A stretch of DNA of 60,654 nt from a virus (Duplodnaviria; Caudoviricetes). The stretch spans positions 1-60,654 of the IMG/VR virus record IMGVR_UViG_3300046777_001314. One strand, written 5' to 3'. Position 1 is the stretch's first letter. Each line of letters begins with the position of its first letter. Positions 3,637 through 23,102 of the stretch are shown one piece after another. The notes below the pieces were generated by a model. That model saw only the letters and a program-made list of their open reading frames with translations. It made no database searches and was not told where the DNA came from. Both the position numbers and the translations under genes were made by a program.

Positions 3637-4292
3637 TGACAGAGAATAACAACGAAAAGCCACCATTTGATATTGCATTAGTTATTGATAATGCAGTAGT
3701 GGATGTTTTGCACTCAGATGGAAGACTAGCAGATATTCTTCTTTCTAATCCAACAATTGTTGATGTAACAAGCGAAGACGGAACACAGTTAGCGTTTGTT
3801 GGTGATAAGTACAATCCAGAAGATGGATCATTTTCTAGAGATGGGGTACTCCCAGAGTCTATAGTAGATGAAACAGGAGATTTTATCTATAAACTTGCAC
3901 TTGTTTTAAATGAAGAAGTTGTGGATGTTTTGTTTATCAATGAAAGACTTGCAGCAATTCTATTGAGCGATCCAATTATTGTTAACGTAACAGGAGACGA
4001 TGGAAAGCAGTTGGCAGACTATGGAGATATTTTTGATCCTGCAACACAGACATTCTCTAAGGGCTCACAGATAGTTCCACAAGAAGAAATTGATGCACAG
4101 ATGAATAAAATTGCAGAAGAACTAAGCAAGATGAATGGCTGGGTATATAATGCAGAAGTTGGACACCATGTTCCTCCAGTTTCCTATCCACAGGATGGTA
4201 AGGTTTATAACTGGGATAATGATGTTGCAAACTGGGTTGAAGCAGATCAAAATCAATTTATCGGCGTAACCATTGATGGAGAAACAGTCTAA
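3636..4292 (+). CDS. Acidic protein with a tandem duplicated domain (putative fibre assembly chaperone)
   Basis: Two copies of ALV.....VVDVL....RLA.ILLS.P.IV.VT..DG.QLA..GD; C-terminal PPVSYPQDGKVYNWD..VANW. Confidence 0.55.
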   Translation: MTENNNEKPPFDIALVIDNAVVDVLHSDGRLADILLSNPTIVDVTSEDGTQLAFVGDKYNPEDGSFSRDGVLPESIVDETGDFIYKLALVLNEEVVDVLFINERLAAILLSDPIIVNVTGDDGKQLADYGDIFDPATQTFSKGSQIVPQEEIDAQMNKIAEELSKMNGWVYNAEVGHHVPPVSYPQDGKVYNWDNDVANWVEADQNQFIGVTIDGETV

Positions 4293-4296
4293 AAAC

Positions 4297-4345
4297 AATA
4301 AAAAAATACCCCCAAGGCATATAGCCAAGGGGGATTTTTTATTTT
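4297..4345. terminator. Bidirectional intrinsic terminator between convergent genes
   Basis: A-run, CCCCCAAGGC-atata-GCCAAGGGGG, T-run, between the + gene ending 4292 and the - gene ending 4349. Confidence 0.8.
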
Positions 4346-4348
4346 ATT

Positions 4349-4903
4349 TTAAATGTTTTGTGGGAACTTGCTTATCCACATCTTGGTTTTGGCTGTTATG
4401 CCTTTCCAAGCAGACCAGTTCTTACCACCATCGCTCATATGGTATGCAATTTTTGCATTGATGACTGGATTCAACAGGTCAAAGTTTGATCTAAGATTAA
4501 ACTTATCACGACGCTCTGGACCTAGATCACTAATCATGTTAATTTGAAATAGTCCGTAAGAACTATCTCCTGTACTTGTGTTGCCATTGAATCTAATTGG
4601 TTGTCCGTTAGACTCTTTCTTGGCTACCGCCCAGGCCTCTTTCAAGTCCTGACCTTCAAAGCCTACTGCCTTTAACATTAAAGCCAAATCTATGTCTGAA
4701 AGAACTGGCTTATTCTCATACTTTTTTAACACTTCTTCCCTAGAAACGAAAAAAACCGCTTTGTGGGCGGTATCCTGATTCTGGGCCGATTTATTAAGTA
4801 AATTATTCTTAGTCGTAACATTTTCTGCATTTGCATTATTTGCAAAAACAGCAGACGATACCACCAATAACATTACCCCAAACCACGCTTTTGTTTCTCT
4901 CAT
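4349..4903 (-). CDS. Secreted lytic transglycosylase (SLT/lysozyme-like superfamily)
   Basis: Signal peptide ending ANA; catalytic AKKES, GLFQIN and WSAW motifs; SD AGGAGG; only credible minus-strand gene. Confidence 0.85.
   Translation of the reverse strand: MRETKAWFGVMLLVVSSAVFANNANAENVTTKNNLLNKSAQNQDTAHKAVFFVSREEVLKKYENKPVLSDIDLALMLKAVGFEGQDLKEAWAVAKKESNGQPIRFNGNTSTGDSSYGLFQINMISDLGPERRDKFNLRSNFDLLNPVINAKIAYHMSDGGKNWSAWKGITAKTKMWISKFPQNI
4749..4771 (-). terminator. Terminator-like hairpin inside the transglycosylase coding sequence
   Basis: Minus strand ACCGC-ccacaaa-GCGGT whose last T begins a T7 run. Confidence 0.45.
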
Positions 4904-4926
4904 AGTTTTTACCTCCTAAGAAACGA

Positions 4927-4961
4927 ATGAGACCCTTTTGGTCTCATAATCTAGTATAACA
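4927..4961 (-). promoter_or_regulatory. Extended -10 promoter (TGTTATACT) followed by a 5' hairpin
   Basis: Minus strand TGTTATACT (4961-4953), then ATGAGACC-aaaag-GGTCTCAT (4947-4927); a second TGTTATAAT at 5016-5008. Confidence 0.6.
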
Positions 4962-5047
4962 TAATCTACTAATGAGTACAACTATAATGTCCGTTTTGTC
5001 CTATATCATTATAACAATCTGATAACAAAATGTATTATTGTTTATTG

Positions 5048-5056
5048 TGATATAAT
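5048..5056 (+). promoter_or_regulatory. Extended -10 promoter TGATATAAT, near-leaderless
   Basis: 9 nt before ATG 5066, no SD; divergent from the transglycosylase promoter. Confidence 0.65.
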
Positions 5057-5065
5057 AAAAGAACT

Positions 5066-5488
5066 ATGGCTACATATAGAGATCAATTAGTCCAAAAAAG
5101 TAAATATGACGTTGGTGCAGTTCCACCAAAAGTTGAGTGGACCTTTGTAAAAGGTGATACAGCAGCATTTCGTGTTTATGTAACAGATGATAATTTAGAT
5201 CCATTAAATATTGCTGATTGGTCAATCAATATGAAAATTAAGAGACCAATAACAGATCCAGTTGTTCCTGGAGAAATTACAGATACAGCAACAACAATTA
5301 TGGCTAAGGTTCCAGCAGCAACAGTAGACGATGGTCCTGGCGAATTTACGGTTTCTTTAACAGCAGCAGAGACTCATAGTTTACAGACAAATGATATTTT
5401 TGATATTCAACTTTCTTTGCCACAAGATGATATTGTTTGGACAGTAGCACAAGGAAGAGTAATAGTTCTTGAGGATGTAACTGACTAA
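5066..5488 (+). CDS. BppU N-terminal-like virion protein
   Basis: VKGDTAAFRV...FDIQL...GRVIVLEDVT; same pattern as 303-662. Confidence 0.55.
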   Translation: MATYRDQLVQKSKYDVGAVPPKVEWTFVKGDTAAFRVYVTDDNLDPLNIADWSINMKIKRPITDPVVPGEITDTATTIMAKVPAATVDDGPGEFTVSLTAAETHSLQTNDIFDIQLSLPQDDIVWTVAQGRVIVLEDVTD

Positions 5489-5712
5489 TGGCATCAGCAG
5501 TAATTACTAGTAAAAATCCTGTAATTACTAGAACAATAGAAAAGAAAAATGTTCCAACTGCAATAATTGTTGGACCTAAAAGGCTTTCAGTAATCAATGA
5601 GACTTTGCCATACAGACTTCGCTTTACTACAATTCAAATTCCAGGTTATGGTCCTAATAATCCCCCAGGAATTGGACTACAGGTAATTGGTTATTCAAAC
5701 TGGATTATTTAA
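5488..5712 (+). CDS. Hypothetical small virion protein
   Basis: 74 aa, TAATG overlap with the upstream gene. Confidence 0.55.
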   Translation: MASAVITSKNPVITRTIEKKNVPTAIIVGPKRLSVINETLPYRLRFTTIQIPGYGPNNPPGIGLQVIGYSNWII

Positions 5713-5729
5713 ATATTTATAATTAATTA

Positions 5730-5738
5730 TGCTATAAT
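5730..5738 (+). promoter_or_regulatory. Extended -10 promoter TGCTATAAT, leaderless
   Basis: 6 nt before ATG 5745, no SD. Confidence 0.65.
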
Positions 5739-5744
5739 ACATGT

Positions 5745-6191
5745 ATGACCCAAGTATCCTTAGCCAACGTAAAGACCAAGTTTGAGACTGGTGATCGTCC
5801 ATCCCAGCAAGACTATGAAGATTTAATTGACTCTACCGCTGGCCAAGCGACCAACCTTGGTTCTTTTGGTAACAATGACAACACAATCAACGGTATTGAA
5901 AATGTAACCGTTATAGATAATTTTGATGCAACACAATGGAGAATGGTCAAGTACATGGTCTCCATATCAAAGACTTCTGCTGGTGATAATAAGTTTTACG
6001 CCACAGAATTAACCATTTTGGTTGATGGAGAAGATATCTCTGTTAGCGAATTTGGAACGATAGACAATGATGGGAATATTGGCACCATTAGCGTCTCCAG
6101 GGTTAGTAACACGGTTGCCCTCACTGTTACACCAGACCCAGCAATCAAGCCTATTACTGTACGTTATGCACGTATGGGACTTAGAGCATAA
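5745..6191 (+). CDS. Virion protein with a FETGDRP N-terminus and a beta-sandwich C-terminal domain
   Basis: KFETGDRPSQQDYEDLIDS; C-terminal domain resembles the C-terminal ~100 aa of 6210-8597. Confidence 0.6.
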   Translation: MTQVSLANVKTKFETGDRPSQQDYEDLIDSTAGQATNLGSFGNNDNTINGIENVTVIDNFDATQWRMVKYMVSISKTSAGDNKFYATELTILVDGEDISVSEFGTIDNDGNIGTISVSRVSNTVALTVTPDPAIKPITVRYARMGLRA

Positions 6192-11380: not shown

Positions 11381-13414
11381 ATGTCAGAAACCGTATTCTC
11401 TTTTCGTCTTTCAGATGAATTTGTAAATAAATATAATAATGTTCCAAGCCCTTTTGGGTTCTCAGATGCAGGGTCTAACTCGCTAGGAGAGATTACATTT
11501 ATTCGTACATATTCTCGTGTTAAAGAAGATGGAACTAAGGAGCGCTGGCATGAGGTTTGCCGTCGTGTAATTGAGGGTATGTACTCAGTACAGAAGAACC
11601 ATGCCAAGGATAACCGTCTACCATGGAATGACAATAAGGCACAGAAGTCTGCTCAAGAGGCATTCCAAAGAATGTTTGAATTAAAGTGGACCCCACCAGG
11701 TCGTGGTCTTTGGGCATTTGGAACACCTATGACTATGGAAAAGCGCAACTCTGCTTCTCTTCAAAACTGTGCAATGGTTTCTACTCGTGATATTGATCGT
11801 AATGATCCTGGTGCCCTTTTTGCTTGGGTAATGGATGCATTAATGTTGGGTATTGGAGTAGGCTTTGATACCCTTGGACAAGATAAGCAAATGTCTATTT
11901 ATGCTCCTACAGAACCAGCATCAATCTATGAAATTCCAGATACCCGTGAGGGATGGGTAGAATCTGTTCGTCTTTTGATTAATTCATTTTTGCGACAGAA
12001 CCAGCCAATTCAAGAGTTTAACTATGATCTTATCCGTCCTCTAGGAGCCCCTATTAAGGGCTTTGGAGGCGTTGCAAGCGGTCCACAGCCACTTATTGAT
12101 CTACATACACGCATTCGTAATGTAATCGGTTCTAGAGCAGGAGAAGCACTAGACAGTCGTGCCATCGTAGACATTGTAAATCTTATTGGTACTTGTGTTG
12201 TTTCTGGAAATGTTCGTCGTTCTGCTACTCTTGCTTTGGGTACACCAGAAGATGAAGGCTTTATTAATCTTAAGAATCCAGAAGTATTTCCAGAAAGAAA
12301 TTCATACGATCCAGAAAAACCAGGTTGGGCATGGATGAGTAATAACTCAATTGCTGCTGAGGTTGGAACAAAGTATGAAGATTATGTAGATTTAATTGCA
12401 GACAATGGAGAACCAGGTTTTATCTGGCTTGATGTTGCTCGTAATTATGGCCGTCTTGCGGATGCTCCTGATTATAAGGACACTCGCATTATGGGCTTCA
12501 ACCCTTGTGCGGAGCAGCCATTGGAAAGTTACGAATTATGTACACTTGTAGAAGTGCATCTTAATCGTCATGAATCCAAGGAGGACTTCCTCAAGACGTT
12601 GAAATTTGCTTATCTTTACGGAAAGACTGTAACATTAATGCCAACACATTGGCAACAGACAAACGGTATCATGCAGAGAAATCGCCGTATTGGAACATCT
12701 CTTACAGGTATTGCCGCATTTGCTGATGAGCATGGTCTTCCAACAACTCGTGAGTGGATGGATGAAGGCTATAACACAATTCGTAAGTATGATCATCAAT
12801 ATTCAGAGTGGCTTTGTGTTCGTGAATCAGTTCGTGTAACAACAGTGAAGCCATCAGGATCTGTATCACTTCTTTCTGGTGCTACCCCTGGAGTTCACTG
12901 GGGCCCTGGTGGAGAATTCTATCTTCGTGCCATTCGTTTTGGTAATCAAGATCCAATGCTTCATTTATTTAAGGCAGCAGGGTATAAAATTGAAGATGAC
13001 CTAGTTTCAGCAAATACATCAGTAGTTTACTTCCCAGTGGCATCAGGACATAAACGTTCTGAAAAGCAGGTTAGCCTATTTGAAAAGATTGGTTTGGCAG
13101 CAACTGCTCAAAAGTACTGGTCAGATAATGGTGTCTCTGTAACTCTATCTTTTGACAAGGAAGAGGAGAAGAAGTTTGTTGCTCCAGCACTAAATATGTA
13201 CGAGGGACAGTTAAAAGCAGTTTCATTCCTTCCAATGGGAAATAAGACATACCCTCAGCAGCCTTATACAGAAATCACAAGAGAAGAATATAACTCATAT
13301 GTAGGCAAGATTGGCAAGATTGACTGGTCTGCTATTTATGATGGTGTAGAAAATCTTGAGGCTGCTGGAGAAGCATATTGCTCAACTGATGCTTGTGAGA
13401 TTAAGTTTTATTAA
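11381..13414 (+). CDS. nrdJ: Class II (adenosylcobalamin-dependent) monomeric ribonucleoside-triphosphate reductase
   Basis: PPGRGLW, LQNC, GNVRRSA, NPCAEQPL active site, TTVKPSG, C-terminal CSTDAC redox pair; no small-subunit gene nearby. Confidence 0.92.
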   Translation: MSETVFSFRLSDEFVNKYNNVPSPFGFSDAGSNSLGEITFIRTYSRVKEDGTKERWHEVCRRVIEGMYSVQKNHAKDNRLPWNDNKAQKSAQEAFQRMFELKWTPPGRGLWAFGTPMTMEKRNSASLQNCAMVSTRDIDRNDPGALFAWVMDALMLGIGVGFDTLGQDKQMSIYAPTEPASIYEIPDTREGWVESVRLLINSFLRQNQPIQEFNYDLIRPLGAPIKGFGGVASGPQPLIDLHTRIRNVIGSRAGEALDSRAIVDIVNLIGTCVVSGNVRRSATLALGTPEDEGFINLKNPEVFPERNSYDPEKPGWAWMSNNSIAAEVGTKYEDYVDLIADNGEPGFIWLDVARNYGRLADAPDYKDTRIMGFNPCAEQPLESYELCTLVEVHLNRHESKEDFLKTLKFAYLYGKTVTLMPTHWQQTNGIMQRNRRIGTSLTGIAAFADEHGLPTTREWMDEGYNTIRKYDHQYSEWLCVRESVRVTTVKPSGSVSLLSGATPGVHWGPGGEFYLRAIRFGNQDPMLHLFKAAGYKIEDDLVSANTSVVYFPVASGHKRSEKQVSLFEKIGLAATAQKYWSDNGVSVTLSFDKEEEKKFVAPALNMYEGQLKAVSFLPMGNKTYPQQPYTEITREEYNSYVGKIGKIDWSAIYDGVENLEAAGEAYCSTDACEIKFY

Positions 13415-13449: not shown

Positions 13450-16400
13450 ATGTCTAACGCATCCAATTTATATGCAGAAAAAGTGTTTGCAGAGCACCCA
13501 TTGGGTCTTTGGGCTTTAGACGACAAACTTGACTATATAAGTCTTATATCAGAAGCACAAAGAAACATTAGTTCTGCATGGGATGTTGAGAATGGTGGTA
13601 TTGAGGCAACTTTAACTCCACCATCGGGAGTACCTTTTCCAGATAGCACTACTACAACAGTATTTTCTCAGGTTTTTTTAACAGACACAAATGATGTAAA
13701 TTTTTGGAGTCCAGACCTAATTAACTTTACAAGTCTTGATCAGGACAAGGGAAGTTTTTGTGTAGGTTCTTATGTATATTGCGATAGCGCATACATGAAT
13801 TCTATTTCTATAGGATATGAATATACTGATCCAAATACTTTAGAGGTTACAAGAAACTATAAAACGTTTCAAACCTCTGTAACCCAGACTTGGCTTTTTA
13901 TTTCTGAGACATTTGAAATTCCAAACGTTAATGCACAACTAAGAGCATTTTTATCAATAAACGTTAGTTCTGGGGGATCAACAACAGAGGCGTATAGGTT
14001 TTATGTTAATGGAGTAACTGTTGGACAATGGTCAGAAGAATTTAACGCAAAATCTTTGGGTGTGTCTTATGAAACTATTCCTTTAGGTATTTCAACTTAT
14101 GGTGGACACAACGGAGTAAAAGCAAGTGCGTATGGATTAGAAGATAATCCAGGATATTATATTGCCTATCCAAATTTATTAGCAAGAAATACAAGCATCC
14201 CCATGGTATTTGGAGCATCAAACCTAACAAAACTTAGTCCTTCAAACACTGCATCTTTAATAGTCCCAGGAAAAGGTTTTTTAAATAAAAAGGGTCAGTT
14301 TCTTGATTACACCATAGAGTTTTGGGCAAAAATAAACTCAGACTCTGGAACAGATAAAAAAATATTTGGTCCCATATCTTCTACTGACGGACTTTATGTA
14401 AATCAAGGATTTTTAACTTTTGCTGTTGGAGATAATTTTGGTTCTCATTTTGTTGGTGAATGGTTTAGACCAATGCTTATACATATAAGAATAATTAAAG
14501 ATTCAGTTTCTGTTTTATTAAATGGAGAACAGGTTATAGCATTTAGCATAAATACAGATACCTTAGAATTACCAAATGAACTTGATCAAGATGGAAACAA
14601 TCAAGACTGGCTTGGTTTTTATTCGTATGAGGATGTTTTCCCATATGAAATTGACTGTGTTGCAATTTATCCTTATTCTGTACCGCTTAATATTGCAAAA
14701 AGAAGATGGGTTTATGGGCAAGCAGTAATATCTACAGAATCTATTAATTCTTCTTATAACGGAAGTTCTGCATTTATTGATTACCCATTTGCAAACTATA
14801 CATCAAATTATACTTATCCAAATTTTGCAAATTGGAATCAGGGAAGTTTTGATAACTTAAATACAACTGCAACATCTTTATCTACACCGTTATATAGGCT
14901 TCCAGAGATATTTACTGGATCAAAAACTTTACAAAATTTTTATGATGATAATCAGGCAATTCAGTCAGGTGCAAATAAGTTTATTACATTTAAACCAAAT
15001 TCAACATGGGAAGGTGTTCAGTCATACATAAACTTTCCATCTCTGAATATTCTAAACGATGAAGTGCATACGATTTATGGAATTTTTAGTTCAGATAGTT
15101 TGCTTTTAGAAGAAACTCTTTTTAAAATTTATAATACCTCAACAGGAAATTTTTTTGCTGTAAGAAAAGACTTAGATGAAATTCACTATTATTTAAATTA
15201 TAATGGACAAGAAGAAGAAATTTATAGATCTTCTGTTGTTCAAGAAGAAGAACTATTTGTTGCTGGTATTAATATAGATAGGCTTGTAAGTTCATTCGGT
15301 GGCAACGTTGCAACATTTTTTGGAAGCAAAAATAATTTAAGATTGTATGTTGCTGGAGAAGAAGATAATCAGTATTCATTTAATGGAAAAATGTATTCGT
15401 TTGGACTATCTACATCTTTTAATACTTCTACCATTAGTAATCATTTTTCAGAAAATGGTATTGCCTTACTTGATTCAACTGAAGAACTATTAGGGCATAC
15501 CGCAAGTTACACACTGCTTCCACTAGAAGAGTATGGGCTTTTCTACCTTGACATAGGTATTTCTGGATACTGGGAAGACTATTTGCCATTATCTTATTTT
15601 GGCAAGTATGTAAGTGGTAAGACTGGGAATTATTATTATGACTTAGACTTCTTACAGTTTAATATTGATTATCCAGCACCAGTTTCAGTAATTGAACATA
15701 TAACCGAGCCATACATAACATATAATACTGAAAATGCTTCAGTAAAAACATACATAACTTTTCAATATATTACAGACGGTGCTAATTCATTACAGGAAAA
15801 TTTTACAACAACCATACCAGTTTCTGAGTCAAATATTATAGATATTGATTTATATCCAAACTGGACAACAACAAAGTTTGAGGTTATTGATGGAACTCTT
15901 ATATATCCAAGTAAACTTATAGACTTCAATTCTTTAGCAATTGTTTATCATGTTGAGTTTGACTGTAAAGGAATTATTAAAAAACCAGTTCAAATTAAAA
16001 AATTAGAGTTAGCATCGCAAGCACTTAATGACAATTCTTTTAATCCAATTGGAACAAGATTTGGAATAAACTTATTTCCATATAAAAAGTCGGGAATTTA
16101 CTATGACTATAAATCAAAAAATCCATTCAGCATATATAAAGGAACAAGTCCATATTTATATTTAACTAGGGATTCTGGTATTAAGGTTCGTGGAGAATTT
16201 GATCCACAAACAAGCCGTGGCATTGCAATATCTATAAATGAATCAAAATCTAGTAGTTATCAGATTAACGCCATTCAGTTATGGATGAAATACGATAAGT
16301 CTATGTTTCCAGAAAATGAATTAGAACTTTTTGATATAAAGTATAAAAATGATACAATTAAGTTTTATTATGTATCAGACACCCTAAAAAGAAATCGTGC

Positions 16401-16905
16401 AAAAATAATTGCAAAAAGTTTAAATACGGGACAAGAATTTAATGGGTTGTCCTATTACCAAAATGGAATACTAGTTAGAGAGCCCAGAATCAGTTTAAAC
16501 GAATGGTTGTCCCTTGGAATTTCTTTTTCTAACTCTTTAAGTTTTAACTCTTATATAGGTTCAATTGACCTAAATGGAGAAATGCTATTTAATAATATAT
16601 CTTATTATCAGGCAAATAGTTTGCAGCAACTACAAAAATACATTACAAGACCATGGATTAGTGTTAAAAATGATGGATTGGTTGACCTTGATTGGCAGTA
16701 CTGGCTTAACGACTATGTTTGGCAGGGTGTTCTGGTTGTTGCATCAACTAACCTTTATTCTACTAATCCAGACGAAATTTATAAAACATATATAGGAACC
16801 AATAAAATCATTGTAGATGACTCACAGGGAATTTCGTTTGACCCAGAAAAGGTTAGCATATATAGCGAAAGATCTTGGCAGACAACCATCAAAACTCCAG
16901 TGTAA
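13450..16905 (+). CDS. Large virion protein with LamG/concanavalin-A-like domains
   Basis: 1151 aa; EHPLGLWALDD N-terminus, YTIEFWAK...LLNGEQV...IDCVAIY LamG-like pattern. Confidence 0.6.
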   Translation: MSNASNLYAEKVFAEHPLGLWALDDKLDYISLISEAQRNISSAWDVENGGIEATLTPPSGVPFPDSTTTTVFSQVFLTDTNDVNFWSPDLINFTSLDQDKGSFCVGSYVYCDSAYMNSISIGYEYTDPNTLEVTRNYKTFQTSVTQTWLFISETFEIPNVNAQLRAFLSINVSSGGSTTEAYRFYVNGVTVGQWSEEFNAKSLGVSYETIPLGISTYGGHNGVKASAYGLEDNPGYYIAYPNLLARNTSIPMVFGASNLTKLSPSNTASLIVPGKGFLNKKGQFLDYTIEFWAKINSDSGTDKKIFGPISSTDGLYVNQGFLTFAVGDNFGSHFVGEWFRPMLIHIRIIKDSVSVLLNGEQVIAFSINTDTLELPNELDQDGNNQDWLGFYSYEDVFPYEIDCVAIYPYSVPLNIAKRRWVYGQAVISTESINSSYNGSSAFIDYPFANYTSNYTYPNFANWNQGSFDNLNTTATSLSTPLYRLPEIFTGSKTLQNFYDDNQAIQSGANKFITFKPNSTWEGVQSYINFPSLNILNDEVHTIYGIFSSDSLLLEETLFKIYNTSTGNFFAVRKDLDEIHYYLNYNGQEEEIYRSSVVQEEELFVAGINIDRLVSSFGGNVATFFGSKNNLRLYVAGEEDNQYSFNGKMYSFGLSTSFNTSTISNHFSENGIALLDSTEELLGHTASYTLLPLEEYGLFYLDIGISGYWEDYLPLSYFGKYVSGKTGNYYYDLDFLQFNIDYPAPVSVIEHITEPYITYNTENASVKTYITFQYITDGANSLQENFTTTIPVSESNIIDIDLYPNWTTTKFEVIDGTLIYPSKLIDFNSLAIVYHVEFDCKGIIKKPVQIKKLELASQALNDNSFNPIGTRFGINLFPYKKSGIYYDYKSKNPFSIYKGTSPYLYLTRDSGIKVRGEFDPQTSRGIAISINESKSSSYQINAIQLWMKYDKSMFPENELELFDIKYKNDTIKFYYVSDTLKRNRAKIIAKSLNTGQEFNGLSYYQNGILVREPRISLNEWLSLGISFSNSLSFNSYIGSIDLNGEMLFNNISYYQANSLQQLQKYITRPWISVKNDGLVDLDWQYWLNDYVWQGVLVVASTNLYSTNPDEIYKTYIGTNKIIVDDSQGISFDPEKVSIYSERSWQTTIKTPV

Positions 16906-16923: not shown

Positions 16924-17319
16924 ATGGATTCTTTAATTAACCCCGAAACTGGCGAACCTATCGTTAAAAATGTACGTAGGCAGGTCATTGAGAAGAAGTA
17001 TAACTGGGGCCTATACGTATATAAGAAGTCAAACGGGAAATGGTTTACAGATGGCAATGGCAATGTGCTTAATATTGAGTCTGTTCGTAATGATTTATCC
17101 AAAATTGCAGAATTAAGGGCAGCAGCCAAGCACTATGGCGATGATGGTGAGGGTGAGTGTGTCTTTGTTCCTGGGCTAACCAGAATTACTGACGAAGAGC
17201 ATTCAGAGCAGATTGATCGTATGAAGGCTGGGCTTATCCCATCTATGAACGATCTTGGTGCATGGCATGCAGCACAGCAAACACTTAATAAAGCAGGTAA
17301 GGACGCATTTGATGAGTAA
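16924..17319 (+). CDS. Hypothetical protein preceding the portal
   Basis: ORF track 16918-17319; ATG 16924 fits a leaderless start; overlaps the portal start. Confidence 0.65.
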   Translation: MDSLINPETGEPIVKNVRRQVIEKKYNWGLYVYKKSNGKWFTDGNGNVLNIESVRNDLSKIAELRAAAKHYGDDGEGECVFVPGLTRITDEEHSEQIDRMKAGLIPSMNDLGAWHAAQQTLNKAGKDAFDE

Positions 17320-18946
17320 CGATGATTATTTAGAGGCTAGACTTGGCACTACAGAAAAACCAGAAAGTCAATTTAAGAATAGCGACCCATTTAATAAGTC
17401 TTGGGAAGAATTAAAAAATCTTGGGGGACTTGAAGATAACTTTAAGCGTCGTATGACACGACAAGTAAATAAAGCAATGACCCAAGAAGGATATCTTGCT
17501 ACTAATTCAAACATTGATCTTTTAAGTACACCATATCTTAATTCAGCAAATGCTGATCCAAAGGGACTTAAAGATTCTGGCTCAAAAGCAATCAATCCTG
17601 GTTTGGTATATAGAAATGGTTATGGTCTTTTTGATGTTATTACACCGCCATATAATCTTTATGAACTAGCAAACTTTTACGATACATCTTTTGCTAACCA
17701 TGCTGCTATTGATGCAAAGGTAGAAAATGTTGTTGGTCTTGGTTATCGTTTTGATGTAACAGATCGTACAATGATGAGTCTTGAAAATAATTCAGATCAG
17801 GCTGCAACAGCCCGTGCCCGTAATCGTATTGAAAGAGCAAAACTAGAACTTCGTGATTGGCTTGAGTCATTAAATGATGACGATAGTTTTACACGCACAA
17901 TGGAAAAGATTTATACTGACTTACAGGCAACTGGAAATGGTTACATGGAAGTTGGTAGAACCGTAAGTGGTGAGATAGGATACCTTGGACATATTCCATC
18001 TACAACAATGCGTGTTCGTCGTATTCGTGATGGATTTGTTCAGATCATTGGACCAAAGGTTGTTTACTTCCGTAACTTTGGTGCAACCAACAGAAATCCA
18101 TTGACAGCAGATCCACGTCCAAATGAAATTATACACTTTAAAGATTATTCACCGCTAAATACATATTATGGTGTTCCAGATATTATTGCAGCACTTCCAT
18201 CACTTATTGGTGACCAACTTGCTTCACAGTATAATATTGATTACTTTGAAAACAAGGCAGTACCAAGATATGTAATTACGCTTAAAGGTGCTAAGTTGTC
18301 TGCTGACGCTGAAGACAAGATGTTCCGATTCCTACAGACAGGACTAAAGTCTCAGTCACACAGAACTTTATATATCCCACTTCCTGGAGATAATGATCAC
18401 TCTAAGGTTGAATTTGATATGAAGCCAATTGAAAATGGGATTCAGGATGGATCATTCAAGGAGTATCGTAAGCAAAACCGTGATGATATTTTGATTGCTC
18501 ATCAGGTTCCAATCTCTAAACTTGGCGGATCAGACTCTGGCGCTATCGCAGCAGCACTAGCACAAGACCGTACATTTAAAGAGCAGGTTTCTCGTCCAGA
18601 GCAACAGCATCTTGAGAAGGTAATCAGCAAGATTATTAAAGAAAAGACAGATATTCTTCAGTTTAAGTTTAATGAACTTACACTTACAGATGAGATTGCA
18701 CAGTCACAGATCCTTGAGCGCTATGTCAAGAATCAGATTATGCTTCCTAATGAAGCCCGTGAAATCCTTGATCTTCCGCAGGCAGACCATGGAGATACTC
18801 CACTTGAACTAAGCCCAAGACAGGCAGCGGATGCAAGAGCAAATGGTAATCGTTCTAGAGATGCAGAGAGAACAAACAATCAGTCAGATGGCTCTGCCAC
18901 CGTGTCTGGACGTAATCCGAAGGGTGAAGGTAGAGCGTCTCAATAA
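17312..18946 (+). CDS. Portal protein (PBSX/HK97-like)
   Basis: TGNGYMEV, EIIHFK, YYGVP, YFENKAVP, PNEARE motifs; start moved to ATG 17312 after AAGGA. Confidence 0.9.
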   Translation: MSNDDYLEARLGTTEKPESQFKNSDPFNKSWEELKNLGGLEDNFKRRMTRQVNKAMTQEGYLATNSNIDLLSTPYLNSANADPKGLKDSGSKAINPGLVYRNGYGLFDVITPPYNLYELANFYDTSFANHAAIDAKVENVVGLGYRFDVTDRTMMSLENNSDQAATARARNRIERAKLELRDWLESLNDDDSFTRTMEKIYTDLQATGNGYMEVGRTVSGEIGYLGHIPSTTMRVRRIRDGFVQIIGPKVVYFRNFGATNRNPLTADPRPNEIIHFKDYSPLNTYYGVPDIIAALPSLIGDQLASQYNIDYFENKAVPRYVITLKGAKLSADAEDKMFRFLQTGLKSQSHRTLYIPLPGDNDHSKVEFDMKPIENGIQDGSFKEYRKQNRDDILIAHQVPISKLGGSDSGAIAAALAQDRTFKEQVSRPEQQHLEKVISKIIKEKTDILQFKFNELTLTDEIAQSQILERYVKNQIMLPNEAREILDLPQADHGDTPLELSPRQAADARANGNRSRDAERTNNQSDGSATVSGRNPKGEGRASQ

Positions 18947-18968: not shown

Positions 18969-18977
18969 TGGTATAAT
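18969..18977 (+). promoter_or_regulatory. Extended -10 promoter TGGTATAAT
   Basis: Intergenic, 10 nt before ATG 18988, no SD. Confidence 0.6.
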
Positions 18978-18987
18978 GGATTACGAT

Positions 18988-20298
18988 ATGAACATAAATA
19001 AGGCTTTTTGGACCACTGATGGCGACAATGTTCGTCTATCAATGCCCTTTGGAAAAGTAGATGTAGAAAAAAGAATTGTATCTGGTTTTGCATCTCTTGA
19101 TAACGTTGACAAGCAGTATGATATTGTTACAACAGAAGCATCAATGAAGGCATTTGCAAAGTTTCGTGGTAATATTCGTGAAATGCATCAACCTTCAGCA
19201 GTTGGCAAGATGCTTAATTTTAAAGAAGAAAAGTATTTTGATCCAGAGACAAAGAAATTCTATAAGGGAGTTTATGTCTCTACATATATCTCAAAGGGTG
19301 CACAGGATGCATGGGAAAAGGTTCTTGACGGAACATACACTGGTTTTTCTATCGGCGGTAGAATGAATAAGTGGGATGATGCATATAACGAAGAACTAGA
19401 TAAATCAATTAGAATTATTAAGGACTATGATCTTGTTGAGTTGAGTCTTGTAGACTCCCCAGCAAATCAGTTCGCAAGTATTATGTCAGTAGAAAAAGTT
19501 GATGGCGTAGATGTTATTAAGGGAGAATTTGCTGACGTTGTTGTGGAAAATGTTTTCTATGACGAAGAAACAGGTATTGTCCTTACTTCTGATGAAGAAA
19601 CATATGTTAGCCCAGTAAGCGGTAATGAAATGAAAAACATTGGTTTTGTAGAAAAAGATGACTCAGAAAAAGCAAACATGATAAAGTTCTTAGTTGATAG
19701 TGCTAAAGGCATTAATACTTCTAAGATTAACAAGGAGGTAAACCCTATGTCAGAAGATACAACAGCAGTAGTTGATGCACCAGTTGCAGAAGCAGAAGCA
19801 GTATCCGCAGAGGTCACTCCAGAGGCACAACCAACAGAAGAAGCAGAAAAGGCTGAAGTAGTTGCAGAAGCAACTCCAGAAGCAGTAGAAAAGTCTGATT
19901 CAGAAGATAGTGCTACATCTTCAGTAGAAGATGCAATTCAGACTCCTGAAGCACCAGCAGCAGAAGATGCTGCAAAGGCTGACGAAGTAATTGCAAGTGC
20001 AATTGCAGAAATCAAGGAATCTGTTACTAATGCCTTTGGCGATCTAACAGCAACAATTAAGTCACTTGGTGATGAAGTTGCTAACCTAAAGAAGTCTCTT
20101 GATGCCACAACAACTGATGTGAATCAGATCAAGGGTACTTTTAATGAAATTGGAAAGAGAGTGGATTCCGTAGAAAAGGACACTGCTTTCCGCAAGTCTG
20201 GCGATCTAGGCGAGATCGTGCAGGAATTGGACTCAACCCCAGTTCAAAAATCCCTATGGGGCGGACGTTTCCTCAAATTCTCCGACCTATATAACTAA
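18988..20298 (+). CDS. Prohead protease (HK97 family) fused to a scaffold
   Basis: VSGFAS...D, REMH, TGFSIGG, ELSLVDSPAN; acidic A/E/P-rich linker and coiled-coil C-terminus. Confidence 0.88.
   Translation: MNINKAFWTTDGDNVRLSMPFGKVDVEKRIVSGFASLDNVDKQYDIVTTEASMKAFAKFRGNIREMHQPSAVGKMLNFKEEKYFDPETKKFYKGVYVSTYISKGAQDAWEKVLDGTYTGFSIGGRMNKWDDAYNEELDKSIRIIKDYDLVELSLVDSPANQFASIMSVEKVDGVDVIKGEFADVVVENVFYDEETGIVLTSDEETYVSPVSGNEMKNIGFVEKDDSEKANMIKFLVDSAKGINTSKINKEVNPMSEDTTAVVDAPVAEAEAVSAEVTPEAQPTEEAEKAEVVAEATPEAVEKSDSEDSATSSVEDAIQTPEAPAAEDAAKADEVIASAIAEIKESVTNAFGDLTATIKSLGDEVANLKKSLDATTTDVNQIKGTFNEIGKRVDSVEKDTAFRKSGDLGEIVQELDSTPVQKSLWGGRFLKFSDLYN
19747..20298 (+). CDS. Nested in-frame scaffolding protein
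   Basis: Full SD AAGGAGGT 7 nt before in-frame ATG 19747 (MSEDTTAVV...). Confidence 0.65.
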   Translation: MSEDTTAVVDAPVAEAEAVSAEVTPEAQPTEEAEKAEVVAEATPEAVEKSDSEDSATSSVEDAIQTPEAPAAEDAAKADEVIASAIAEIKESVTNAFGDLTATIKSLGDEVANLKKSLDATTTDVNQIKGTFNEIGKRVDSVEKDTAFRKSGDLGEIVQELDSTPVQKSLWGGRFLKFSDLYN

Positions 20299-20325
20299 CA
20301 TAAAAATCACTAGGAGGTGAACAAT

Positions 20326-21441
20326 ATGTCAGAAGATATCGTAAAAAACTATCCAGGAACTACACAGGGCCACACCCATACAGGTGAAGGCGCAGTAGCA
20401 TCTGGTTCTACCGCAGACGCAGCAGCCATTGTTAATGGTCGTGAAGGCGTTATGGGTAACATTGATGGTGCAAATTACGGAACATCAGGAAGCCTTGGAG
20501 TAAATCCAGTAGGTACACCTGGCGGTATCCTATTGCCTGAACAAGCACGTCGCTTCATTGATTATGTGTGGGATGCTACAGTTCTCGCTAAGGATGGACG
20601 TAGAGTTACTATGAGAGCCAACACAATGGAACTTGAAAAGGTTAACGTTGGTGAGCGTGTAATTCGTGCAGCAGCACAAGCAGACCCTACATTTACAAAT
20701 GCAGGCGCAACTTTCTCAAAGGTTGAATTGACTACTAAGAAGATTCGTCTTGACTGGGAAGTATCAACAGAAGCACTAGAAGATAACGTAGAAGGTGGCG
20801 CTCTTGAAGACCATCTAGTACGTTTGATGACAACTGCTTTTGCAAACGACATTGAAGATCTTGCAATTAATGGTACAGGTACAGGCGGAGACGCTTTCCT
20901 TAACATTATGGAAGGCTTTGTTTCAAAGGTACAGGGCGGAGACTCACACGAGTCTTTCGTAACAGTTGAAAATAACAACTGGACAACACCAGTACTTCAG
21001 GATATCATCCTTGCAATGCCACGTAAGTATCGTGCAATCAAGAACAACCTAAAGTTCTATGCAGGTACAGACGCATTCCAGGGTATCGTCAAGAACAACG
21101 GTACACTTGCTGATGCAATTGCAGAAGCATTTACACCACGTCTTGGTGGTACTGAGGCTAACCGTCAGGCATACTATGATGGTAATGCTCAGACATTCGG
21201 TGGAGCACGTACAACACGTGTTCTTGGTGTTGAAGTTCAGGAAGTTCCTTACTACCCTGCAGGCTATGTAGATCTTACATTCCCTCAGAACCGTGTATGG
21301 GGATTCCAGCGTGATATCACTGTAAACCGTTTCTACCAGCCAAAGAAGGACACAATTGAGTACACAGTATTCGTCCGCTTTGGTATTCAGTGGGAAGAAC
21401 TTGACGCAGTTGCATTCGCAACAGCAGCAAATAACTCATAA
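20326..21441 (+). CDS. Major capsid protein (HK97 fold)
   Basis: GGILLPEQARRF, STEALEDN, DIEDLAINGTG; follows protease/scaffold; SD AGGAGGTG before ATG 20326. Confidence 0.92.
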   Translation: MSEDIVKNYPGTTQGHTHTGEGAVASGSTADAAAIVNGREGVMGNIDGANYGTSGSLGVNPVGTPGGILLPEQARRFIDYVWDATVLAKDGRRVTMRANTMELEKVNVGERVIRAAAQADPTFTNAGATFSKVELTTKKIRLDWEVSTEALEDNVEGGALEDHLVRLMTTAFANDIEDLAINGTGTGGDAFLNIMEGFVSKVQGGDSHESFVTVENNNWTTPVLQDIILAMPRKYRAIKNNLKFYAGTDAFQGIVKNNGTLADAIAEAFTPRLGGTEANRQAYYDGNAQTFGGARTTRVLGVEVQEVPYYPAGYVDLTFPQNRVWGFQRDITVNRFYQPKKDTIEYTVFVRFGIQWEELDAVAFATAANNS

Positions 21442-21453
21442 TCGCAAAACGAT

Positions 21454-21496
21454 TGACTTTGGGGAACGGTGTCAAAGCCGTTCCCTTTAGTCATTT
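21454..21496 (+). terminator. Stem-loop after the capsid gene (probably a leaky terminator)
   Basis: TGACT..GGGAACGGT-gtcaaa-GCCGTTCCC..AGTCA with only short T tracts. Confidence 0.7.
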
Positions 21497-21509
21497 ATAA
21501 GGAGATTAA

Positions 21510-21749
21510 ATGTCATATCCAGGAACACCGCAAGAACACACACACGTTGCAGAAGGTGCAATTGTTACACTTGGTAATCCAGGAGTAATAATTATGGGTC
21601 CAGGGGGTCTGCAAGTTAATACAATGGGTGTATTAGGTGAAGCAAATATGGGTGATACATCGGGACCAAATGCAGTTAATCCATCAGGAACACAAAGCGG
21701 GATTCGCTTGCCATCACAAAATAATTTTGGCATAAGAAGACAACGCTAA
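21510..21749 (+). CDS. 79-aa paralog of the major capsid N-terminal arm
   Basis: YPGTPQEHTH..EGA and MG....AN.G.TSG...VNP.GT..GI.LP.Q match roughly the first 75 capsid residues; SD AAGGAG. Confidence 0.8.
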   Translation: MSYPGTPQEHTHVAEGAIVTLGNPGVIIMGPGGLQVNTMGVLGEANMGDTSGPNAVNPSGTQSGIRLPSQNNFGIRRQR

Positions 21750-21752
21750 TTC

Positions 21753-21761
21753 TGGTATAAT
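21753..21761 (+). promoter_or_regulatory. Extended -10 promoter TGGTATAAT
   Basis: Intergenic, before SD AGGAGG and ATG 21778. Confidence 0.65.
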
Positions 21762-21777
21762 GACATAGGAGGAATTA

Positions 21778-22119
21778 ATGTCTATTGTTGAAGATTTGTC
21801 TAAGAAGACTGTTATGGAAATAAAGTCTTATGCAAAGAAAAATAACATTGATTTATTTGGGGTAAGCACAAAGGCTCACATGCTTGAGGTAATTGCTAAT
21901 TGGACTCCCAAAGAAGATTCAGTAGCAAAACCAAAGGTTGAAAAGTCAGTAGATGAAAAAATAGCACTTTTTTCAGGCAGAAATATATTCTGGAATGGAG
22001 TTGGAGAACTCGTAAAAGGATATAATATTGTAACCAAGGAGGTTTCCGAAAAGTGGCTTACCCACAAGTTGGTTCGCATAGCGACACCACAAGAGGTAGC
22101 AAAGCACTACGGTAAATAA
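21778..22119 (+). CDS. Hypothetical protein with a Rho N-terminal/HeH-like motif
   Basis: LSKKTVMEIKSYAKKNNI....KAHMLEVI pattern. Confidence 0.55.
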   Translation: MSIVEDLSKKTVMEIKSYAKKNNIDLFGVSTKAHMLEVIANWTPKEDSVAKPKVEKSVDEKIALFSGRNIFWNGVGELVKGYNIVTKEVSEKWLTHKLVRIATPQEVAKHYGK

Positions 22120-22121
22120 TT

Positions 22122-23102
22122 ATGATAGTTTTAAGACTCCCACCATATCCAATTGACGTTAAATATGACGTTCCAGAACCAAACACAGATTATCTTTTTA
22201 CTATTGAGAATGCTCCTAAAACAATTGAGGCATCTGAAATTCTAACATCAGATAGCAATTCTCAAATTACTTTTACACTTACAGGTGATTTTGTAACATA
22301 CGATCATGACTATGCTGTTGCTATCTATGAATTAGTTGATGGTGCTCCAGAACATATTTTTGTTGAAGATATTCTTAGTATTGTTCGTCCATATGTTGAT
22401 CCAAGAACACTTGGTACAACTGCTACAGAAATAGCAGAAGCAACATATAATGAACGTATTGCTAGAGCAATTATTGATTCTTTGATTAGTCGTGGTTTTA
22501 CATTTGAAAAGAAAGTTCTTGAGGTTGTTGGTCAAGGTAATGACTATATGCCAGTGTGGGAAACAATTTATAAGATTGACAAGGTTTATGAAAATGGTGT
22601 TTTAGTTTATGATTATCAGGCAGAAACACCCGCACTTGCAGGTTTTAATTATGTGATTACTCAAGATAGAACTGCAATTGTAAAGGTTCCAACTGACTCT
22701 AGTCAGTATGAGCCAAAAAATCGTAATGAGCGCAAACCACTAAAGTATAGAGATGCAGGATCGGACTCATTCTATACATATGCTCCATATGAAAACTTTG
22801 ATAACATGTGGATTAATACAAGAAATCCTGCAGTCTCTTTCCCTGAAGGGTTTGATTATATTTTTATTTATGAGGCAGGATACAAGGTTATTCCAAATGA
22901 TGTTCGTGATGCAGTAAACATGCTTATTAATGATATTAAGTGTGGAAAAATGGATCACTATAAATCATATGTAAGCGAATATGAAACAGATCAGTTTAAA
23001 CTTAAGTATGATTCATCTAAGTTCTTTGGTACTGGAAATATTTTAGTTGATATTATTCTTGATAAGTATATAACAGACTTGCGTACACCAGGGATTCTAT
23101 AA
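22122..23102 (+). CDS. Head-to-tail adaptor
   Basis: Position; ARAIID...YEAGYKVIPNDVRDAVNML...TGNILVDIILDKY. Confidence 0.65.
   Translation: MIVLRLPPYPIDVKYDVPEPNTDYLFTIENAPKTIEASEILTSDSNSQITFTLTGDFVTYDHDYAVAIYELVDGAPEHIFVEDILSIVRPYVDPRTLGTTATEIAEATYNERIARAIIDSLISRGFTFEKKVLEVVGQGNDYMPVWETIYKIDKVYENGVLVYDYQAETPALAGFNYVITQDRTAIVKVPTDSSQYEPKNRNERKPLKYRDAGSDSFYTYAPYENFDNMWINTRNPAVSFPEGFDYIFIYEAGYKVIPNDVRDAVNMLINDIKCGKMDHYKSYVSEYETDQFKLKYDSSKFFGTGNILVDIILDKYITDLRTPGIL

Follow-up and report, generated by a model that had tools for sequence, protein, structure and literature searches.

A small gene for a stand-alone capsid leader copy, located behind the major capsid gene of an uncultured freshwater phage lineage

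Why should a tailed phage carry, directly behind the gene of its major capsid protein (MCP), a second, small gene that encodes little more than the beginning of the same protein? The assembly of tailed-phage heads is usually told in terms of a capsid protein, a scaffold, a protease, a portal and, sometimes, decoration proteins. The question is raised by the virus record IMGVR_UViG_3300046777_001314 (Duplodnaviria; Caudoviricetes), which was analyzed over its whole length of 60,654 bases (approximately 56% of the genome by estimate; termed the window in the following) and in which an open reading frame (ORF) of 79 residues had been regarded, in an original prediction made from the letters of the DNA, as a stand-alone copy of the capsid N-terminal arm (N-arm). 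The results presented here support the view that this small ORF is a true paralogue of the capsid N-terminus, conserved and encoded as a separate protein. The literature (full-text search; supplementary files were outside the search) yielded no account of a capsid leader copy with a gene of its own, in agreement with the original prediction, whose author knew of no described example. The lineage of uncultured freshwater phages concerned is widespread (thousands of capsid homologues; capsid transcripts in four freshwater metatranscriptomes), and its extra gene, essentially the capsid leader in the form of a free peptide that is matched to the leader of its own capsid protein, is a clean case of a new gene born by partial duplication of a structural gene and then kept by selection.

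The small ORF and the copied part of the capsid protein

The comparison concerns the following features of the window:

20326–21441, + strand: MCP gene, HK97 fold, 371 residues from the ATG at 20326 (PF05065 from residue 66; phrog_1623 over residues 65–367)
20347–20544, + strand: MCP segment paralogous to the small ORF, MCP residues 8–73 (BLASTP; six-frame match 20347–20547)
21454–21493, + strand: RNA hairpin directly 3' of the capsid stop codon, with an inner 10-bp stem at 21461–21486
21499–21504, + strand: Shine-Dalgarno sequence (SD) AAGGAG of the small ORF, read from the sequence
21510–21749, + strand: small ORF, a 79-residue copy of the capsid leader with a basic tail (ATG start, TAA stop)

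BLASTP yielded a single alignment between the small ORF and the MCP (ORF residues 2–70 to MCP residues 8–73, 32/71 identities, E 8e-12, composition-adjusted), and the local alignment score of 126 was not reached by any of 2000 shuffles of the ORF (31.8 ± 5.9; z 16.1, 0/2000 as high). The alignments that had been made by eye (11/15 and 18/32 identities) were both correct when recounted on the translations; the SD of the small ORF, five bases before the ATG, and its basic tail RRQR had likewise been read correctly. A six-frame search of the whole record revealed only two copies at E ≤ 10, the MCP segment and the small ORF, so that within these 60 kb the leader is not a module carried by several different cargo proteins; inspection of the protease-scaffold protein by eye showed no third copy of the motif. 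As had been claimed, the match ends where the conserved core of the capsid protein starts: PF05065 and phrog_1623 begin at MCP residue 65–66, and residue 20 of the MCP of Streptomyces phage Bmoc aligns to residue 66. In consequence, the small ORF does not belong to the HK97-fold MCP family (PF05065/phrog_1623), its match ending at MCP residue 73, at the start of the core, whereas the neighboring MCP itself is a member by profile, model and Foldseek comparison. The small ORF matched no Pfam and no PHROG family at E ≤ 0.1; tblastn with the small protein as query gave no match at E ≤ 1 in 50,697 deposited phage genomes, and the ESM Atlas held no informative neighbor (best score 0.79). The profile of the small-protein family, compared with 1.84 billion representatives, gave 15 matches at E ≤ 0.001, which comprised only small proteins, capsid fragments and long proteins of low complexity.

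The nature of the copied part became apparent from the comparison with related capsid proteins. The Bmoc MCP (331 residues) is 43% identical to that of the window, and the Bmoc-like MCPs (80 viral contigs) have a short leader of approximately 19 residues that consists of a conserved start, glycines and a conserved GGLL..EQ; a few of them have intermediate leaders of approximately 40 residues that are rich in G, T and S. In the MCP of the window lineage, an insert of approximately 50–55 residues stands between the conserved first eight residues MSEDIVKN and GGILLPEQ. It is this insert that the small ORF copies, together with GI.LP.Q (about seven residues at the conserved start of the core) and nothing further of the core, the last matched residues being GIRLPSQ versus GILLPEQ; glycine accounts for 18–21% of the residues of the leader copies.

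In the AlphaFold2 model of the MCP (58-row alignment, pLDDT 65.7, pTM 0.63; a shallow alignment gave pLDDT 38.9), the N-arm helix comprised residues 71–84 and the spine helix residues 158–182, while residues 1–68 had pLDDT values below 50 and no secondary structure. Foldseek grouped this model with the capsid proteins of P2/P4 (gpN; 7jw1, the best match), T5/DT57C and HK97. The homologous capsid segment (residues 8–73) thus sits N-terminal to the N-arm, as do capsid propeptides and delta-domain-like leaders; a helical, coiled-coil structure as in scaffolds was not predicted in it, residues 1–68 being devoid of helix in the AlphaFold2 model. Because the core alignment with Bmoc starts at residue 66 and the leader is unstructured in the model, the copied part is regarded as the leader and not as the arm that makes inter-subunit contacts. 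The designation as a copy of the N-arm was therefore mostly wrong: according to sequence comparison and modeling, the copy is the predicted-disordered leader ahead of the N-arm helix, a clade-specific, glycine-rich insert that is absent in the relatives from Streptomyces phages, and only its last few residues overlap with the start of the core.

Selection, origin and matching to the own capsid leader

A search of 5.8 billion proteins retrieved 83 clusters of the small protein (44–93% identity; 47–92 residues, nearly all 75–92), several of them on contigs of 100–110 kb. An alignment of 37 sequences (that of the window and 36 picked across the identity range) contained 17 invariant columns, among which are the initial M-S-Y and a run of glycines; the tail was basic throughout this alignment and variable in sequence. 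Tests for selection were performed on 34 unique related loci with the small gene. The frame was open in 34/34 of them, the antisense frame in 2/34; by codon position, 42, 38 and 66 of 70 sites were variable, and the median pairwise dN/dS of the small gene, 0.265 (535/561 pairs usable), was close to that of the capsid leader (0.260) and twice that of the capsid core (0.132). In most of these 34 loci, the start of the small gene has an AGGAG-type box before it; in a few, the box reads AGGGG or GGGAG. The small ORF is a real gene under purifying selection. The original prediction had named a decaying duplicate, with dN/dS near 1, as the outcome that would speak against it; given purifying selection with a median dN/dS of 0.265 and a frame open in every locus, this is not what was found. 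A functionless remnant of duplication, or a chance ORF, might have been suspected in a truncated copy of a neighboring gene, at a place where a 1081-nt tandem duplication in one relative (see below) shows that such rearrangements occur; the selection data (dN/dS 0.27, frame open in 34/34 versus 2/34 antisense, variation dominated by third positions, 83 clusters, 17 invariant columns, a conserved SD) contradict this explanation, to which next to no probability is assigned.

To follow the distribution of the small gene, viral contigs were scanned four times and genome contigs once; a capsid gene of the window kind was recognized in 220 loci (217 with enough downstream sequence, which gave 195 unique loci). 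The small gene was present in 45/195 unique loci and missing from 150/195; on a tree of the capsid core, its presence requires at least 8 changes. For its origin, the 45 small proteins were placed in one tree with 90 capsid leaders (45 from their own genomes and 45 sampled from the 134 unique leaders of gene-less loci): all 45 small proteins lay on one side of a single branch (SH-aLRT 99; 97 in the first set). The simplest reading of these sequence comparisons is a single origin of the gene, in a partial duplication at the 5' end of the MCP gene, with subsequent loss or exchange. No downstream ORF resembling the N-terminus of its own capsid protein was found in 87 other loci (7 contigs of metagenome-assembled genomes (MAGs) and 80 Bmoc-like; 6 with too little flanking sequence), the maximum z being 2.9.

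A separate observation concerns the relative L001, in which positions 3647–5808 contain an exact tandem duplication of 1081 nt (3647–4727 = 4728–5808, 100% identical). Through it, the start of the small ORF (approximately 41 nt) is fused out of frame to a capsid gene that begins at about codon 50, and the locus has the order capsid gene, hairpin, hybrid second capsid copy, hairpin, small ORF. The two genes either underwent illegitimate recombination very recently, or the duplication is an artefact of assembly.

After a single duplication, a small protein is expected to be no more similar to the capsid leader of its own genome than to the leaders of other genomes. The scores were higher within genomes, 135.4 versus 121.4 across genomes (0/5000 permutations), with almost all of the excess in residues 1–24. 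An H-x-H motif was present in both copies in 26 genomes and in neither in 8 (discordant: 0/34), and within one clade both copies carry a one-residue insertion with V-D-H. In an enlarged set with 15 sequence types, the identity over the first 20 residues was 10.2 of 20 to the leader of the own type versus 8.4 to the others, a difference reached by 0/50,000 permutations; the own type was the best match in 8/15. The original prediction had proposed an examination of whether the small ORF co-evolves with the N-terminus of its own capsid protein, and by these comparisons the first approximately 20 residues do change in step.

Recent gene conversion was considered as the cause of this matching and rejected. 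In the relative L309, small protein and capsid leader are identical at 16/18 residues compared codon by codon (17/20 over the full segment), and 8 of these 16 identical residues use different codons, including serine encoded by AGC versus TCT; alignments of the two copies at DNA level were weak in 8/8 genomes examined. Because of the different codons and the weak DNA alignments, the match is regarded as held at the protein level. Complementary conservation of a motif in the two copies, as in subfunctionalization, was rejected as well: in the first set of loci, the capsid protein contained the exact SGPNAVNPSG in 13/15 loci without the small gene versus 0/34 with it, and the gene-less capsid leaders also scored higher against the small-protein profile, but these loci had been fetched by GPN[AS]VNPS, and the pattern proved to be a sampling artefact. 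In the wider set (a further 160 loci fetched by capsid proteins), the exact SGPNAVNPSG occurred in 18/150 loci without versus 0/45 with the gene, independent pairs gave no signal, and the profile scores of the capsid leaders were 45.9 bits with the gene and 39.1 bits without.

Arrangement and expression of the locus

The small ORF lies on the + strand in a head module that comprises genes for the portal, the protease-scaffold protein, the MCP, the small protein and proteins of 113 and 326 residues. The further features of this module are:

17255–18946, + strand: portal gene (PF04860)
18976–20298, + strand: head maturation protease with a scaffold-like C-terminal part, 440 residues (Pfam Peptidase_S78_2 and S78; phrog_9427 over its full length)
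21753–21761, + strand: extended −10-like box TGGTATAAT (TGnTATAAT pattern), followed by the SD of the next gene
21778–22119, + strand: next gene, 113 residues, function unassigned, located directly after the capsid gene where relatives lack the small ORF
22122–23102, + strand: gene for 326 residues, the positional counterpart of the head-to-tail adaptor in Streptomyces phage Bmoc

The hairpin behind the capsid gene has a calculated stability of −28.6 kcal/mol (z −5.5; 0/200 shuffles as stable); its T tail is weak, and a simple terminator scan does not list it. A hairpin with weak T tracts ahead of the small ORF, as described in the original prediction, is thus present. Hairpins of −22 to −32 kcal/mol stand at the same place in 34/34 relatives carrying the small gene, and in 15 loci without it a G+C-rich inverted repeat is visible at this position (as judged by sequence, not folded). 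The order of elements was capsid stop, hairpin, SD, small ORF, TGnTATAAT, SD and next gene in 34/34 unique loci with the small gene and capsid stop, hairpin, TGnTATAAT, SD and next gene in 15/15 loci without it; because the two orders differ only there, the small gene is regarded as an insertion between the capsid hairpin and the promoter-like box. No TGnTATAAT was found between the capsid stop and the start of the small ORF in any of the 34 loci. The TGnTATAAT box is probably a promoter of the connector and tail genes. As to the hairpin, we infer from the sequence that it attenuates transcription and that the small gene is read from RNA running past it; its position behind a hairpin and the lack of a separate promoter-like box are in keeping with a gene at the end of the capsid transcription unit and with the read-through expression that had been suggested. 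Among metatranscriptomes, 20 freshwater runs hold 0.15–0.23 of the sampled words, and contigs of four freshwater runs (four studies) cover positions 20300–21451, i.e. the capsid gene of this phage or of close relatives, with 88–99% likeness; the contigs of these four runs contained nothing over 21452–22200, which is uninformative on expression, as they derive from relatives at the 88% cut-off and the small ORF has diverged further than the capsid core.

When the protease-scaffold proteins of 38 relatives were aligned, the protease part and the last approximately 100 residues were conserved, whereas the linker between them was variable and acidic. A conserved P-M-[ST]-[ED]-[ED]-T (residues approximately 256–262; window positions 19740–19760) is located at the border between the conserved middle part and the acidic linker; it resembles the MCP start M-S-E-D, possibly by chance. 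The MCP gene itself has an alternative in-frame start (GTG at 20317). The gene for 113 residues is kept behind the capsid gene across the whole wider family, Streptomyces phages included (in Bmoc and the Bmoc-like loci, a gene for approximately 130 residues occupies its position); its N-terminus gave weak matches to short PHROG families, including the end of an endonuclease VII family. Shortly upstream of the portal gene, and separated from it by an ORF of 133 residues, stands an ORF of 1151 residues (13450–16905) with no PHROG match at E ≤ 0.001; just ahead of the latter lies a ribonucleotide reductase gene (phrog_367; 11381–13414). No terminase was recognized among the ORFs scanned.

The nearest deposited phages at DNA level infect Streptomyces and Rhodococcus (134 records; 60–80% identity, only over the protease and capsid genes). 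Eight related contigs with the capsid gene (L084–L091) had been binned into 8 MAGs from freshwater metagenomes labeled as Flavobacterium, Flavipsychrobacter, Methylococcus, Actinomycetota, Aquiluna, Polynucleobacter, Lishizhenia and Bifidobacterium. These conflicting labels suggest mis-binned phage contigs and not prophages, and no host is named here because the taxa of the bins disagree.

Possible function and comparison with known head systems

The best explanation for the whole of these results, which is put forward tentatively and with somewhat less than an even chance of being correct, is that a one-time partial duplicate became a trans-acting copy of the leader and serves as an accessory assembly protein of the procapsid interior. 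As the small protein is little more than the leader and is matched to the leader of its own genome, it likely shares the partner of the leader or binds to leaders themselves. It would make the contacts of the capsid leader in trans: during procapsid assembly, it would enter the capsid interior alongside the leaders, and the shared partner could be the leaders of neighboring subunits, the protease-scaffold fusion, a candidate partner common to capsid leader and small protein, or both. The short basic tail (charge +2.8), which stands where the N-arm helix would be, may anchor the protein to the acidic linker of the scaffold (charge −20 at pH 7 over residues 250–340) or, later, to DNA. By analogy with phage P2, the interior location and the processing of the small protein are probable, and maturation would involve the processing or removal of both leader and small protein. 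Should the peptide act in assembly, the disordered capsid leader would have a sequence-specific job that can be supplied in trans, and pairs of matched versus mismatched leaders would give a simple handle on what leaders bind.

Several points weigh against this assembly role. It is deduced from sequences; leader and small protein have no predicted structure, and their contacts cannot be modeled from such predictions. The small protein is devoid of the conserved first eight residues of the capsid protein (MSEDIVKN), and the gene is dispensable for this capsid type (150/195 loci without it; at least 8 changes). The matching is almost confined to the N-terminal part: in the remaining C-terminal 50 residues there was little excess within genomes (21.0 versus 20.5, 3210/50,000 permutations). 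Furthermore, the permutation tests ignore relatedness, and the contrast between HTH and HSH variants, with L012, L015 and L021 as discordant genomes, is underpowered (one phylogenetically independent pair on well-supported branches, three on all branches); ancient gene conversion followed by synonymous drift is a possible cause of the matching.

Among the alternatives, the small protein might be a leader mimic, a novel type of assembly factor that co-assembles with the capsid leaders in the procapsid through homotypic contacts matched in sequence and that completes or caps the leader clusters left incomplete by the lattice at the pentons or the portal. This is a minor possibility; it would account for the first 20 residues having to track those of the own capsid protein when DNA is no longer exchanged between the genes. 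A slot for a free copy within homotypically packed leaders, to which the matching of the first 20 residues is also suited, would accommodate the explanation of the original prediction, namely a free arm that is retained in the mature capsid as cement or plug, e.g. in empty sites at the portal vertex. The copied start of the core just ahead of the N-arm helix (GIRLPSQ versus GILLPEQ) and an expression behind the hairpin that fits a low-copy component are in line with such an arm, but most of the copy is a disordered, clade-specific insert and not an inter-subunit contact arm of the HK97 type, 150/195 relatives with the same capsid protein manage without the small gene, and leaders at this position are removed in P2, the nearest relative by structure (PMC7552001). 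A retained arm is therefore considered unlikely; the cement, portal-vertex and capsid-size roles that had been proposed are unsupported, the small protein having no match to families of decoration or cement proteins in Pfam and PHROG.

With similar reserve, the small protein may be viewed as acting on the prohead protease, as its decoy substrate or as a competitive regulator; it would time or buffer capsid cleavage and would not itself be a building block. The phage encodes its own S78-type protease, and the best-conserved stretch of the small protein, SGPNAVNPSGTP.GIRLP.Q (exact 10-mer in 28/34), lies before the first N-arm helix, at a position equivalent to the site in P2 gpN that is cleaved by gpO. 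Yet the exact 10-mer occurs in only 18/195 capsid proteins, which would be odd for an obligatory recognition site, a similar motif was not seen by eye in the protease-scaffold protein although self-cutting would be expected, and no cleavage site is known for this family; a role as decoy is thus rather doubtful. Bacterial defense systems sense capsid proteins, and the small protein could alternatively soak up a host immune sensor that, late in infection, detects the capsid protein. Within the capsid protein, the leader evolves fastest (dN/dS 0.26 versus 0.13 in the core), and the small gene is accessory, patchy and matched to the leader of its own capsid, as might be expected of such a function; its place in a unit of head genes and its many invariant glycines look structural, however, and not like the product of an arms race, and no match to a known anti-defense family was found (Pfam and PHROGs only; PADLOC was not searched). 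An anti-defense function is considered very improbable.

The assembly role in trans can be compared with several known head systems. Lambda gpD is a decoration protein, small and encoded beside the capsid gene; the window small protein shares size and gene position with decoration proteins of this type, whereas it has no family match or predicted fold and is homologous to the leader of its own capsid protein. In HK97, a phage with a prohead protease, the position N-terminal to the N-arm is occupied by the delta domain, a long, helical segment that takes the place of a scaffold. The window leader is likewise N-terminal to the N-arm in a phage with a prohead protease; it differs in being glycine-rich and unstructured in prediction, and in the presence of a separate scaffold-like part on the protease.

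A small head-module protein that shares its N-terminal sequence with another head protein, a type represented in T4 and 80alpha, is also found in the window. In T4, the prohead protease strips 65 N-terminal residues from the capsid protein and cuts or degrades small core proteins (PMC9958956); gp67, gp68 and the internal proteins with a capsid targeting sequence are small proteins of the head region that enter the prohead interior, as is proposed here for the small protein. No sequence relation between the small protein and the T4 core proteins was found (Pfam, PHROG); unlike the small protein, the latter are not copies of the capsid propeptide, and the function of the former is one that we infer. 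Assembly in the staphylococcal phage 80alpha requires an N-terminal sequence of 13–14 residues that the capsid protein has in common with the scaffolding protein and that the host protease Prp cleaves at an F|A site (PMC5744158). The likeness consists in two head proteins with the same N-terminal sequence. In 80alpha, this sequence is carried by two otherwise full-size proteins, whereas in the window approximately 65 residues are shared, the second protein is almost only the shared part, and the phage has its own protease.

The closest parallel in structure is P2, whose gpN (7jw1) was the best match of the MCP model and whose gpO resembles the window protease in its fusion to a scaffold-like part. 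In gpN, the first 31 residues are located on the procapsid interior and make contacts at the trimer interface; a disordered linker connects them to the N-arm, and gpO removes them (PMC7552001). P2 differs from the window in having no separate gene for a leader copy, and the window leader differs from that of gpN in its length of approximately 65 residues, its richness in glycine and its lack of predicted helix, its cleavage being proposed by analogy. While a free gene for a leader copy is undescribed so far, the small protein appears, from its sequence, akin to the known accessory proteins of the head whose leader also occurs on the capsid protein.

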